From Nitratidesulfovibrio vulgaris str. Hildenborough (GTDB lineage Bacteria; Desulfobacterota; Desulfovibrionia; Desulfovibrionales; Desulfovibrionaceae): a DNA stretch of 32,000 bases. Location of the stretch: contig NC_002937.3 of NCBI RefSeq assembly GCF_000195755.1, positions 390,001 to 422,000 of the forward strand, written 5' to 3'. Positions within the stretch are counted from its first letter, which is position 1; every line of letters begins with the position of its first letter. Below the pieces are notes generated by a model. The model was not told the origin of the DNA, searched no databases, and worked only from the letters and a program-made list of their open reading frames with translations. The translations under genes were made by a program, and so were the position numbers. Below, piece by piece: positions 25,929 through 29,836 of the stretch.

Positions 25929-26248
25929 GGCGCGTTCCGGTCGTGGATGGTGCGTGTCATGCGGCGCTGGTGTTGTCGCAACAGCCTGTCGGCACGGGGA
26001 CTTTTGTCAAACGCGAACGCATGCGCTACAGTGGCATCAGCGGCTCACTGATGGCGAGGCTTACGCAGCGGACACCTGACATGGTGCATACGACCTGACG
26101 ATAAGCCCGCGGGGCGTCTCCGATGCGGTTCCCCACGGTGTTATCCTGGAATGAAGCGATGGCACCGGCGTCGCGTATCCCGTGACCTCGTCACATGTTC
26201 CCCGGTCGTTTCGCCGGGCGCACTACTACTAGCAAGGAAGGCAATGCC

Positions 26249-26929
26249 ATGCAAAGCACACTCTGGTGGCTGGCGTTCGGTGACATCCACGACAATGTGT
26301 CGCGGCTTGAAGAACTGCCGGGACTTGCGGATGCCACAGGGGTCATCGTGACAGGCGACATCACCGTGGGCGGCGGTATCAAACAGGCTGAACGCTCTCT
26401 GGAGGCTGTCGCCCGCGTCAATCCGAACGTCCTCGCCCAGATAGGCAACATGGACAGGGGCGAGGTGACGGAATGGCTTGAGACCAGAGGGTGGAACCTG
26501 CACGCCTCTGTGCGCGAGGTCGCACCCGGTGCCGCCATCGTGGGGGTGGGGGCGTCCACCTTCACGCCATTCGGTACGCCCAGTGAATTCCCGGAATCGC
26601 GCTTCTCCGCATGGCTGGATGACATCCACAGGACGCTTCGTGAACGGGGGCTGCGACGTGTGCTGCTCGTTTCCCACAATCCCCCGCACCACACCTTGTG
26701 CGACAGGGTGGGAGACAGGCACGTGGGCAGTACCGCCGTACGCGAGTTCATCGAAGAGGTGCAGCCCGACGTATGCGTGTGCGGGCACATCCACGAGTCG
26801 CGTGGTGTCGACCGCATTGGGCGTACGGTGGTGGTGAACCCCGGAACGCTGCTTTCCGGGGGCTATGTGGTTGTGCGGCTTGCCGGGGAAGGCGGCTTCG
26901 CGGCTGAACTCAATGTGCTGAAACCCTAG
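26249..26929 (+). CDS. Calcineurin-like metallophosphoesterase
   Basis: ATG 26249 follows AAGGAAGG. Motif series: WLAFGDIHDN, VTGDIT, GNMD, VSHNPP, CGHIHES, VNPG. Confidence 0.75.
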   Translation: MQSTLWWLAFGDIHDNVSRLEELPGLADATGVIVTGDITVGGGIKQAERSLEAVARVNPNVLAQIGNMDRGEVTEWLETRGWNLHASVREVAPGAAIVGVGASTFTPFGTPSEFPESRFSAWLDDIHRTLRERGLRRVLLVSHNPPHHTLCDRVGDRHVGSTAVREFIEEVQPDVCVCGHIHESRGVDRIGRTVVVNPGTLLSGGYVVVRLAGEGGFAAELNVLKP

Positions 26930-26996: not shown

Positions 26997-27025
26997 TTGA
27001 CATCGGAGAGGCACAAGCATAGTTT
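26997..27025 (+). promoter_or_regulatory. Candidate strong sigma-70 promoter for tRNA-fMet, with an AT-rich UP-like element and GC-rich discriminator
   Basis: Perfect TTGACA (26997-27002), a 17-nt spacer, then TAGTTT (27020-27025). Upstream is gaaaagaaaaatgtgcttttttgaaatt and downstream is ccgcttcccgg. The tRNA starts about 45 nt further on. Confidence 0.45.
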
Positions 27026-27072
27026 CCGCTTCCCGGACGAGAGACGCCTTCTGGCGGATGTCCGGAACATGT

Positions 27073-27149
<77 letters not shown>

Positions 27150-27157
27150 GAATCGCA

Positions 27158-27190
27158 AGCGCGTATGGGAACACCCCATACGCGCTTTTC
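27158..27190 (+). terminator. Intrinsic terminator after tRNA-fMet
   Basis: 12-bp stem AGCGCGTATGGG / CCCATACGCGCT, loop AACAC, followed by TTTC. Confidence 0.75.
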
Positions 27191-27319
27191 GCGTATGCGG
27201 CGGTGTCTTGTTGCTTCCTCGTCCCTGTTGTCATTTCTCCCATTTTTTGTGCTCTGCGAGCATGTCCTTCGCGTCGTGCATGGGCTTTGGCTGTGCGTGC
27301 GCTGTGAGGGTTGTCGGGT

Positions 27320-27356
27320 GTCACACAAGTTGAGAAAATGCGTCACGCAAGTTGAG
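27320..27356 (+). repeat. 15-bp direct repeat (GTCACRCAAGTTGAG) x2 at 22-bp spacing in non-coding DNA
   Basis: gtcacacaagttgag (27320-27334) and gtcacgcaagttgag (27342-27356), with a partial third copy gtcacgc at 27419-27425. An 8-bp hairpin GGCGCACA/TGTGCGCC plus a T-rich run follows at 27380-27410. Confidence 0.5.
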
Positions 27357-27978
27357 CACGTTGCTTCAGAATCTGCCGGGGCGCACAGCGTTGTGCGCCT
27401 CGTTCGTTTGTAAGGGGTGTCACGCGGAAACCCTGTCCACATCGCACGCCCCACGGCGTGGACATGGGGGCAATGACACACCCCCGCCGATAGCCACTCA
27501 TGCATACTGCCCCCGTCATTCTCTTCCCCGTCTCCCGGTGGGGCGACCGCTGTCGGTCCTCATCCGTAACGATGTCGCGGGGCAGGCTGCTGCTGGAAGA
27601 GGCGCAGACAGTTGATGCCCTTCGAAGGTGGCTGTCCTGCGGGAGGCGGTGCGCGATTCTGCCGCATGGCGTTCAGCAAAGGGGATGTCCGGCGTCGTCT
27701 GGGAATGGCTTCTCCTGTCCGGCGGAGTGGGGAGGGGGCATGACGCAAGCCGTGAATACATCGGTTGGGGGTAGCGGCGGGAAGGCACAGCCCCTTGCAG
27801 GGGAACGTGGCAGGGTCTGAGGTGCAGCAGCGTTGTCTTTCATGGGAGTGTCGTCGGTCAGCCTCACGGAGGGTTGTGAAGGATGCGTGGTGGCTGAAAG
27901 GGCTGCCGAAGGGAACAGAAGTCCAGAATCGGTGCATTTCTGGTGAAACAGAATATATCTACATAGTTGAGCAGGAAT

Positions 27979-28055
27979 GTTGCGAATGCAACGTGTGTAT
28001 TTTTTCAGCGTTGCGAATGCAACATTTTATTGATTTGATGTTGCGAATGCAACAT
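27979..28055. promoter_or_regulatory. Three identical palindromic operator-like sites GTTGC-GAAT-GCAAC phased at 30-31 bp, upstream of the porin gene
   Basis: Exact 14-mers gttgcgaatgcaac occur at 27979-27992, 28010-28023 and 28040-28053. The third extends to an 18-bp dyad ATGTTGCGAATGCAACAT (28038-28055). The spacing corresponds to about three helical turns. Confidence 0.6.
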
Positions 28056-28083
28056 TTTTCAGTAAAATGCTTGCAGCATGGAG

Positions 28084-28109
28084 TGGTTTTTATGTTGCAT
28101 TGGTAACAT
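28084..28109 (+). promoter_or_regulatory. Degenerate fourth dyad overlapping a sigma-54-like -24/-12 element (hypothetical)
   Basis: TGGTTTTTATGTTGCA (28084-28099) has GG and TTGCA at the canonical TGGCAC-N5-TTGCA spacing but lacks the CAC. The dyad ATGTTGC-ATTG-GTAACAT (28092-28109) has one arm mismatch. Confidence 0.3.
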
Positions 28110-28411
28110 CGATACATTTTTTTGTGATTTTTTTATCGAGTATGTGGCGGCCTGTGCAGTATGTCACTATACATAAATGTACAATCGTTCTATCAGTTTT
28201 TTAAAAATATATCTTTAATTACAGTGTATTTTGCGAATATTCCGGTAATTATCAAAAATAATGACAATTACGTTAATATTATCAAGATGCTCTGCGCGTC
28301 ATGTGGCCAGTTCAAGATGATTTTGATCTGTTGATGGCTCATTTGCTTTAAATTAACTTTGCATCGGGTTTCAGGATTATTACACCCCTTGTAAAGAAGG
28401 AAGGACTGCAA

Positions 28412-29836
28412 ATGAAACGTGTAGCTGCCATACTTGTAGCGTGCGGGCTCGTTTTAGGAGCCTACTCTGGTGCGCATGCGGCAGACATCAAGGCCAAGGG
28501 CGTTTGGGCCATCGATTTTTCATGGCTTGACAGTGGCGATTACACCTCAATGGCTGACGACGGCAAAAGCGACGACGACTTCTCGGCAAGCCAGCGTCTG
28601 CGTACACAGATAGACATCATCGCAAGCGATTCCCTGAGGGGGGTCGTGTTCTTCGAAATCGGCAATACCGTGTGGGGCCGTGGTGCCAACGACCACGGTG
28701 GCGCCCTCGGTGCCGACGAGGCCAATATCGAAGTCCGTCGTTCGTACATCGACTGGATAGTGCCCAACACAGACCTGAAGGTCCGCATGGGCATTCAGGG
28801 TCTGGTCATGCCCGGCGCGGTGGCTGGCACCTCTCCTGTATTCCAGGATGACGTGGCGGCCCTCACACTGAGCCAGCGCATCACTGACATGTACAGCGTC
28901 ACGGCGTTCTGGGCGCGTCCTGCCGACGTGAGCAACGGTTCCGAGAAGGGCAATGCCTTTGATGAAATCGACGTGTTCGGCCTCGTGGTGCCCGTGACGC
29001 TCGACGGGTTCAAGATAAGCCCCTACGGCATGTATTCTTCGCTGGGCAAGGACGCCAACTTCGTCGGTTCGACCAACGGCGGCGCTCCGCTGCTCGCAGG
29101 CATGCGCAGCATGTCCGAAGTGGCTAACGGCAGTGCCGCCAAGCCGTTCGATGGCCGCTCCAACACGTACGATGCGTGGTGGGCCGGTACTTCCTTCGAG
29201 ATGAACTACCTCGCTCCCTTCTCGCTGAAGCTGGACGCCGTCTACGGCAGCAAGACCGCTGACGATGCCGATTCCGCCGAGCGTGCTGGCTGGTTTGTCG
29301 CCGCCCTGGCAGAGTACAAGCTCGACATGGTGACCCCCGGCGTCCTCGCATGGTACGGCTCCGGCGAAGATGACGACCTCGGCAACGGTTCCGAGCGCAT
29401 GCCCTCCCTGTCTCCCACCGCATGGGGTGTGACGAGCTTCGGCTTCCCCGGTTCGGTGTACCGTCAGGACCTCTACTTCGGACGCAACGGTGCAGGCAGC
29501 TGGGCCCTTGGCCTGCAGCTTGACGACATCACCTACATGGAGAAGCTGTCGCATGTGGCCCGCGTGGTCTACATGAAGGGCACCAGCGACGGCGACGTGA
29601 TCAAGAACAACGCGGACGTGCGTAGCGCTTTCGAACCCGGTCGCGGAGAAGTGTTCCTCACTGAAGAGGACAGCGCCATCGAAGTGAACTTCGATACGAC
29701 CTACAAGATCTACGATAACCTTTCCGTGGTGCTCGAGACCGGCTGGATCAAGCTCAACATGGACAAGGACGTCTGGGCCGACAAGGACTACTCTGACGCG
29801 AAGAAGTTCGTCTTCAACTTCGTGTACGACTTCTAG
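28412..29836 (+). CDS. Outer-membrane beta-barrel porin (Desulfovibrio-type major porin family, by recollection)
   Basis: 474 aa with an AAGGAAGGA RBS. Signal peptide MKRVAAILVACGLVLGAYSGAHA|AD. The sequence shows alternating amphipathic strands and is rich in G/D/N/Y/W. The C-terminus FVFNFVYDF ends in Phe, the OMP sorting signature. Confidence 0.8.
   Translation: MKRVAAILVACGLVLGAYSGAHAADIKAKGVWAIDFSWLDSGDYTSMADDGKSDDDFSASQRLRTQIDIIASDSLRGVVFFEIGNTVWGRGANDHGGALGADEANIEVRRSYIDWIVPNTDLKVRMGIQGLVMPGAVAGTSPVFQDDVAALTLSQRITDMYSVTAFWARPADVSNGSEKGNAFDEIDVFGLVVPVTLDGFKISPYGMYSSLGKDANFVGSTNGGAPLLAGMRSMSEVANGSAAKPFDGRSNTYDAWWAGTSFEMNYLAPFSLKLDAVYGSKTADDADSAERAGWFVAALAEYKLDMVTPGVLAWYGSGEDDDLGNGSERMPSLSPTAWGVTSFGFPGSVYRQDLYFGRNGAGSWALGLQLDDITYMEKLSHVARVVYMKGTSDGDVIKNNADVRSAFEPGRGEVFLTEEDSAIEVNFDTTYKIYDNLSVVLETGWIKLNMDKDVWADKDYSDAKKFVFNFVYDF

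Follow-up and report, generated by a model that had tools for sequence, protein, structure and literature searches.

Four dyads in an AT-rich island upstream of a minor porin gene of Nitratidesulfovibrio vulgaris Hildenborough are very probably a binding-site array of the response regulator DVU3305

Directly upstream of the porin gene DVU0371, the chromosome of Nitratidesulfovibrio vulgaris str. Hildenborough (hereafter D. vulgaris) carries a sharply AT-rich island with repeated palindromes, or dyads, which we analysed within a window of 32,000 nt (NC_002937.3, positions 390,001 to 422,000 of the forward strand; five-digit positions below are those of the window). The genome is made up of two sequences of 3,570,858 and 202,301 bp (3.77 Mb in total, G+C 63%). 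The island extends over 27940..28411, with no strand of its own, between GC-rich non-coding DNA and the start codon of the porin gene, which is encoded on the + strand at 28412..29836 (418412-419836 in the published gene table). Its G+C content is 0.26-0.38 in 100-bp windows from 27950 to 28400, as compared to 0.57-0.68 on either side and 0.631 for the chromosome, which bears out the initial annotation of about 470 AT-rich bp before the porin (G+C 26-38% in a 63% genome). The island is single-copy, with neither a second genomic copy nor a plasmid match found, and for this reason we dropped a reading of it as a mobile or repeated element. DVU0371 matches the NCBIfam model NF033939 "outer membrane homotrimeric porin" (DESULF_POR1 family) over residues 1-474, with 567 bits against a cut-off of 250 (E 2e-170), and is one of four genomic paralogs, the others being 54-60% identical to it. 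According to the literature on this family, DVU0799 far exceeds the other paralogs in abundance and DVU0371 is scarce in standard cultures; DVU0371, whose status as a candidate porin was first recognised in a porin paper of 2017, is a minor paralog and the label of major porin given to it initially belongs to DVU0799.

Four dyads lie within the island, exactly where the initial annotation had placed them. Dyads 1 (27979..27992) and 2 (28010..28023), neither of them assigned a strand, are copies of the 14-mer GTTGCGAATGCAAC with a 4-bp spacer, and dyad 3 is an 18-bp perfect dyad, ATGTTGCGAATGCAACAT (28038..28055), whose core at 28040-28053 is the third copy; the starts of the three copies (27979, 28010 and 28040) are spaced by 31 and 30 bp. 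Dyad 4, the degenerate ATGTTGCATTGGTAACAT (28092..28109), repeats this core in inverted orientation with two positions changed (89% complementary as inverted repeat I1). The three exact copies of GTTGCGAATGCAAC are the only ones in the 3.77-Mb genome, no others appear at one mismatch, and perfect GTTGC-N4-GCAAC dyads number only nine; the repetition is not due to chance. A genome search with the dyad motif, which had been proposed as a way to define a regulon, did not yield one: there is no fourth GTTGCGAATGCAAC, and the extended form TGTTGC-N4-GCAACA has a single other genomic match. Dyads 1-3 are carried by a 30-bp tandem repeat of 2.7 copies (27977..28058, + strand; Tandem Repeats Finder score 102, 81% matches), and the analysis of repeat families and alignments shows that they share the non-palindromic spacer GAAT, one orientation and similar flanks. 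This argues for an origin by tandem duplication and against three independently selected sites. The 31/30-bp phasing, corresponding to helical offsets between dyads of -17 and -51 degrees at 10.5 bp per turn, follows from the 30-bp duplication and needs no further assumption.

The protein that binds these dyads is very probably the response regulator DVU3305. In the in-vitro mapping of Hildenborough response regulators by DNA-affinity-purification-chip (DAP-chip; Rajeev et al. 2011, Genome Biol 12:R99, PMC3333781), the first-listed DVU3305 peak, with a score of 2.13, covers 417770-418469 (27770-28469 of the window) and ties for first place with DVU3305's own operon and DVU2820/2822. In Table S8 of the same work the four dyads are entered under the DVU3305 motif "with a 4 bp spacer", namely GTTGCGAATGCAAC at -99, -68 and -38 (dyads 1, 2 and 3) and GTTGCATTGGTAAC at +16 (dyad 4) from DVU0369, the hypothetical open reading frame (ORF) to which published work attributes the sites (PMC3333781; PMC4641369). 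The DVU3305 site upstream of DVU3303, GTTGCGATATGCAAC, has a 5-bp spacer and was validated by electrophoretic mobility shift assay (EMSA), in which the probe shifts and a mutated probe does not (PMC3333781). Both the half-sites GTTGC/GCAAC and the arms extended to TGTTGC/GCAACA are identical to those of this validated site, and the island holds the inverted repeat GTTGC/GCAAC around an A+T-rich spacer in three perfect copies and in one with one mismatch. DVU3305 is encoded 3.06 Mb away, at 3,482,737-3,484,092, and contains Response_reg, Sigma54_activat and HTH_8 domains, i.e. a receiver, a sigma-54-interaction (AAA+) domain and a Fis-type helix-turn-helix. Kazakov et al. 2015 (PMC4641369) include it among the two-component enhancer-binding proteins, its loop being GAFSGA, and it drives the sigma-54 promoter that is curated at DVU3302. 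The initial proposals of a multi-site protein-binding array before the porin gene, of a regulator encoded outside the window and of an NtrC-type enhancer-binding protein as that regulator are all borne out by these data. Array and regulator were already published in 2011, so their novelty is low; none of the literature found that mentions DVU3305 discusses a link to a porin.

As the array differs from the validated site in the length of its spacer, we placed the published list of 20 DVU3305 peaks on the genome and counted GTTGC/GCAAC dyads with at most one mismatch by spacer. Dyads with a 5-bp spacer fall in four peaks and those with a 4-bp spacer in two (this locus and DVU0380), with about 0.3 expected in each case, while spacers of 2, 3, 6, 7 and 8 bp give dyads in at most one peak. 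Judging by these counts, a 4-bp spacer appears to be tolerated by DVU3305. The 5-N4-5 geometry had also been taken initially as that of CRP/FNR-family operators, a reading to which we give almost no credence: the dyads share only their geometry with such sites, whereas GTTGC/GCAAC is neither TTGAT/ATCAA nor TGTGA/TCACA, the half-sites are identical to the validated ones of DVU3305 and the locus is a joint top peak of that regulator. Besides, the 4-bp-spacer site in DVU0380, GTTGCCGTAGCAGC (one mismatch), is found at 430980-430993 of the chromosome, 13 kb beyond the porin, in the coding region of a putative sulfatase and inside the published DVU3305 peak that ranks fifth.

Palindromes may also act in RNA, and the array could be read as a tandem series of three weak intrinsic terminators or insulators, stopping read-through from the side of the tRNA-Met gene located upstream before it reaches the porin promoter. 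A consensus scan flagged dyads 1 and 2 as terminator-like, the predicted hairpins reach -6 to -9 kcal/mol and UUUUU directly follows dyad 3. Nevertheless, the stems contain only three G-C pairs and their energies are weak, the U run begins 7 nt past the stem of dyad 1, a stronger terminator-like hairpin is already present at 27377-27402, and the sites are explained by published protein binding. We regard such a role as very improbable.

In order to follow the array within the species, seven D. vulgaris alleles were compared, namely the window and six public contigs that differ from one another in their upstream allele, the complete DP4 genome being one of the six. Many public contigs encode the porin protein in identical or nearly identical form, and among the seven alleles 1-7 of the 1425 nt of the coding sequence differ pairwise. 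Dyads 1-3 and their flank (27862-28057) vary in a single column out of 196, C28014T, which changes dyad 2 of DP4 to GTTGTGAATGCAAC; dyads 1 and 3 are invariant. Dyad 4 does not vary in any of its 18 columns and sits in a 41-bp invariant run amid a polymorphic stretch. Downstream of it, 33/211 columns vary in the spacer 28110-28320, and none do in the 91 bp that directly precede the ATG. The dyads and the block proximal to the start codon are constrained, which constitutes a population-level footprint. This block (28321..28411, + strand) contains the ribosome-binding block AAAGAAGGAAGGA at 28393-28405; it is probably the 5' untranslated region and possibly also the core promoter.

The stretch 28058-28320 is a hot spot of within-species polymorphism, with 37/263 variable columns and a rate 2-3 times that of other nearby non-coding stretches. 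In a 4-kb profile, variable columns per 100 bp amount to 14-16 in 28130-28329, 4-7 in other non-coding DNA and 0-2 in coding DNA. The variable stretch shows 26 transitions, 10 transversions and 2 indel columns, and its site patterns are incompatible; the transition bias together with this incompatibility suggests recombination or old polymorphism. The polymorphic AT-rich spacer (28110..28320, no strand) houses several elements noted initially, all found in place: two T7 tracts (28117-28123 and 28128-28134), the half-site TTGCGAAT (28231-28238) and an IHF-like site, TATCAGTTTTTTA (28191-28203). The last two do not hold up as sites. The half-site is polymorphic among strains, and the IHF-like site is a loose fit to WATCAA-N4-TTR in which 4 of 13 positions vary (28192, 28195, 28197 and 28203), including the ATCA core, which reads ATCG in 4/7 alleles. 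The spacer shows no sign of coding and no RNA structure (no Rfam match, fold z-score of -1.2), and an RNA-element reading was dropped on the grounds that there is no Rfam match and that the folding is not unusual. On the other side of the array, the roughly 150 bp that immediately precede dyad 1 (27830-27976) are strain-invariant, the non-coding DNA before them (27630-27829) having 5-7 variable columns per 100 bp. This region is partly G+C-rich, includes the annotated 34-aa ORF DVU0368 and gave neither a sigma-54 promoter nor an Rfam match; it may hold a functional element.

At the loci examined outside D. vulgaris the array is missing. No dyads were found upstream of porin homologs at the 29 other-species loci examined, nor upstream of the true DVU0371 orthologs in four Nitratidesulfovibrio genomes, so that the motif, kept among D. 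vulgaris strains, is absent from the orthologous promoters where the initial annotation had suggested looking for it. The four ortholog upstream regions have a normal G+C content and share with the window the 13-nt ribosome-binding block alone, as judged by local alignment against shuffles. DVU0371 homologs in other Nitratidesulfovibrio species are 67-74% identical and, in five genomes, represent the second gene of a porin pair beside uvrC. A maximum-likelihood tree places DVU0371 among these uvrC-linked second porins (support 100/98); the second porin that the strain itself carries beside uvrC falls elsewhere, with DVU0273. It seems that in the D. vulgaris lineage DVU0371 was either relocated or replaced. 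Concerning the regulator, no ortholog of DVU3305 was found in the closest genus-mate of the species set, and the perfect dyads near DVU3305 orthologs in other genomes have 5-bp spacers. Since dyads are lacking at other-species porins and spacers near DVU3305 orthologs are of 5 bp, the array is specific to D. vulgaris; from these sequence comparisons it would represent an innovation of this species on a relocated gene.

Two further palindromic arrangements were observed. In an uncultured Desulfovibrio sp. (CASEWR010000195.1, 7371-7456), three perfect GTTGC-N4-GCAAC dyads with different spacers, separated by 31 and 41 bp, precede an nrfHA-like operon (cytochrome c nitrite reductase) by about 150-230 bp, and no sigma-54 promoter was detected between these dyads and the operon; in this gut Desulfovibrio they may form an array of regulator sites related to the present one. 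A scan of genome contigs for two N4 dyads 10-30 bp apart was abandoned, having returned over 120 matches that were mostly unrelated tandem repeats. The porin paralog at 315257 of the D. vulgaris chromosome, presumed to be DVU0273, is preceded at about 140-110 bp by a perfect 17-bp palindrome, TTGAAAATTATTTTCAA, which by its sequence looks like a Fur-type box. Each porin paralog may be under a different regulator.

The lineage specificity raises the possibility that the array binds DVU3305 with no direct effect on the porin, either as a recently duplicated sink of high affinity that titrates the regulator or as the neutral outcome of a tandem duplication in AT-rich DNA free of constraint. Its absence from the Nitratidesulfovibrio orthologs and the 29 other-species porin loci, its nature as a tandem repeat and the half-site mutation in dyad 2 of DP4 would all fit such a sink or neutral array, and so would the fact that Rajeev et al. 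(PMC3333781) did not count the locus as a target. However, 55/56 dyad positions are strain-invariant beside a spacer with 16% variable columns, and the conserved block reaching about 150 bp upstream of dyad 1 suggests function. We therefore consider an array without effect on the porin quite improbable.

If the array acts on the porin gene, the promoter through which it does so has to be considered. The initial annotation had pointed to TGGTTTTTATGTTGCA (28084..28099, + strand) as a sigma-54-like -24/-12 element, and the corresponding model is that of a true enhancer, in which phosphorylated DVU3305 on dyads 1-3 would activate sigma-54 polymerase at TGGTTTTTATGTTGCA, transcription would start at about 28110 with a 300-nt leader, and dyad 4 would limit output. 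DVU3305 is a complete enhancer-binding protein with its GAFSGA loop and drives the sigma-54 promoter at DVU3302, and the 31/30-bp spacing of the dyads is close to that of NtrC sites at glnAp2, roughly 32 bp. TGGTTTTTATGTTGCA is the only + strand GG-N10-GC between the array and the ATG; it is correctly oriented, lies 31 bp after dyad 3 and would place the dyad centres at about -124, -93 and -63. A promoter that stays silent unless activated would also fit the scarcity of DVU0371 in standard cultures.

We scored the element with a weight matrix built from the 87 curated D. vulgaris sigma-54 promoters of Kazakov et al. (PMC4641369), which themselves range from 6.7 to 21.9 bits with a median of 17.1. 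TGGTTTTTATGTTGCA reaches 4.4 bits, below all 87; about 7,900 genome positions score as high or higher, and 1555 of 2000 dinucleotide shuffles (78%) of the 358 nt from dyad 3 to the ATG match or beat it. Its TTGCA belongs to dyad 4, so that a GG in register is then a roughly 5% chance per dyad and orientation, with eight dyad orientations available for such a coincidence. In DP4 the GG reads AG (G28085A), and the GC, although conserved, is part of dyad 4. A regulator site lying over the -12 element would also block the polymerase. The published list of sigma-54 promoters contains neither TGGTTTTTATGTTGCA nor any entry for DVU0369-0371 (PMC4641369). A matrix scan of 27000-28500 found nothing above chance, with no better sigma-54 promoter on either strand within 1 kb upstream, and no credible promoter of the form TGGCAC-N5-TTGCW is present downstream of the dyads within looping distance. 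The sigma-54 reading of TGGTTTTTATGTTGCA is at chance level and has no statistical support, despite the invariant GG and GC in the right spacing and orientation. On balance, we judge a true sigma-54 enhancer unlikely.

The lack of a credible sigma-54 promoter within 1 kb favours operator-type control of a sigma-70 promoter instead. Within 1.4 kb the + strand offers a single sigma-70-like match, the candidate promoter TTGCGA-N16-TAAAAT (28041..28068; 9/12 in a consensus scan), whose -35 hexamer is the left half of dyad 3; a start at about 28075 would give a leader of about 335 nt. Both hexamers are strain-invariant, and positions 28058 and 28059 in the spacer between them vary. We propose a mechanism for DVU3305, the NtrC-family response regulator of the DVU3303-3305 stress system, which comprises a Lon-protease, a kinase and the regulator. 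A 30-bp unit would have been tandemly duplicated in the D. vulgaris lineage, leading to the array 318-433 bp upstream of the relocated DVU0371. DVU3305 dimers would occupy dyads 1-3, roughly on one helical face, and would then oligomerise as NtrC does. The sigma-70 promoter would start just downstream of dyad 3, with dyad 3 covering its -35 and dyad 4 lying at about +18 to +31, and stress signalling would modulate, most likely repress, the alternative porin via a long unconstrained leader. There is a precedent in that DVU3305 binds its own operon DVU3303-3305, which Kazakov et al. (PMC4641369) marked as being without a sigma-54 promoter; one of the DVU3305 sites there overlaps the start codon of DVU3303. 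The arrangement also resembles that of NtrC at the sigma-70 promoter glnAp1.

Several observations weigh against this mechanism or against DVU3305 as its regulator. The sigma-70 match is only 9/12, a score easily arising in AT-rich DNA, and four more such matches occur on the other strand, and an arrangement of three phased, high-affinity sites upstream of a -35 would suit an enhancer better than an operator. The spacer is the 4-bp GAAT, and the 5 bp of the EMSA-validated and ortholog-based motif are not found here. Rajeev et al. left the locus out of their DVU3305 target list (PMC3333781). Six other perfect N4 dyads, with G+C-rich spacers, fall outside the 20 listed DVU3305 peaks, so a dyad alone is insufficient for binding, and the A+T-rich spacer probably matters. 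The island is also a mid-rank peak for the unrelated regulators DVU2114 and DVU2934, among recurrent AT-rich regions, and part of the DAP-chip signal is therefore possibly non-specific; the first rank combined with the motif is specific to DVU3305. Taken together, a DVU3305 array that arose by tandem duplication and works as a sigma-70 operator is the best explanation as a whole, with a probability of roughly 0.45. The sigma-70 operator part, which is read from sequence, is itself held tentatively and at odds slightly short of even. A more general proposition, that DVU3305 controls an alternative porin from a lineage-specific array with 4-bp spacers, through either sigma-70 repression or a highly degenerate sigma-54 promoter, strikes us as doubtful.

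Upstream of the island, a metallophosphoesterase gene (26195-26929) precedes a tRNA-Met gene at 27073..27149 (+ strand; ARAGORN and Rfam), which forms the left-hand limit of the conserved block to which the porin belongs. Between the tRNA gene and the island lie about 790 bp of G+C-rich DNA in which no gene is convincing. In DP4 and a second D. vulgaris genome, sequence homologous to the window begins at 27102, inside tRNA-Met, with different DNA upstream. Both carry an integrase-bearing insert at the 3' part of this gene, that of DP4 having a phage-type integrase gene. The tRNA-Met gene is an integration site in these strains, and the porin block borders on a variable region.

The original annotation places three hypothetical ORFs in the control region: DVU0368 (27842-27946), DVU0369 (28078-28176) and DVU0370 (minus strand, ending at 28411), most of the latter two lying in the polymorphic spacer. 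DVU0368 and DVU0369 both lack a ribosome-binding site. A coding reading of DVU0369 was dropped, as its TGG is a TAG stop codon in DP4 and another allele has a frameshift; a 57-aa ORF called by others spans an indel. All three are probably not genes, and their annotation may be the reason why the published DVU3305 peak was never tied to the porin.

What is new with respect to the literature is the porin link, the origin by tandem duplication, the lineage specificity, the pattern of conservation among strains and the finding that the sigma-54 promoter is at chance level. Were the proposed mechanism true, a three-component stress system with a Lon protease would be linked to outer-membrane permeability. 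The published target described as a hypothetical ORF would really be the control region of a porin paralog, and the stress signalling of a model sulfate reducer may therefore tune the permeability of its outer membrane. DVU3303-3305 mutants gain fitness in chlorate, which has been attributed to the target DVU3299 (PMC10102598); porin control could also contribute to the chlorate resistance of these mutants. The locus would in addition be a case of regulatory rewiring, in which a porin whose counterparts in sister species lie beside uvrC was moved to the neighbourhood of a tRNA gene and acquired a new array of duplicated sites. Finally, the natural pair of 4-bp and 5-bp spacers and the variants that DP4 carries in dyad 2 and in the GG offer ready tests of the spacing tolerance of NtrC-type dimers.

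The closest known system is the DVU3305 motif itself (Rajeev 2011; Kazakov 2015), which comprises the same locus and the same four sequences, and whose half-sites match those of GTTGCGATATGCAAC. The spacer differs, being of 4 bp here and of 5 bp in the validated motif and near the orthologous regulators. Unlike other DVU3305 sites, which occur singly or in twos, the locus has three exact tandem copies. At E. coli glnA, the NtrC sites serve both as an enhancer for the sigma-54 promoter glnAp2 and as an operator for the overlapping sigma-70 promoter glnAp1, with dimers oligomerising on adjacent sites. The likeness to the present array lies in dyads of the NtrC family about three helical turns apart; the differences are that here there is no credible sigma-54 promoter, that three identical sites and an inverted one stand more than 300 bp from the gene, and that the binding was observed in vitro. 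A second comparison is with OmpR, a winged-helix activator and repressor of sigma-70 promoters, which binds direct repeats at the sites F1-F3 and the distal F4 of E. coli ompF/ompC. There too, the response regulator of a two-component system occupies several phased sites and one more distant site before a porin gene, by which the permeability of the envelope is made to follow a signal from the environment. In contrast to OmpR, DVU3305 belongs to the AAA+ enhancer-binding proteins, has a Fis-type helix-turn-helix and recognises inverted repeats, and the two arrays resemble each other without homology of either the sites or the proteins.

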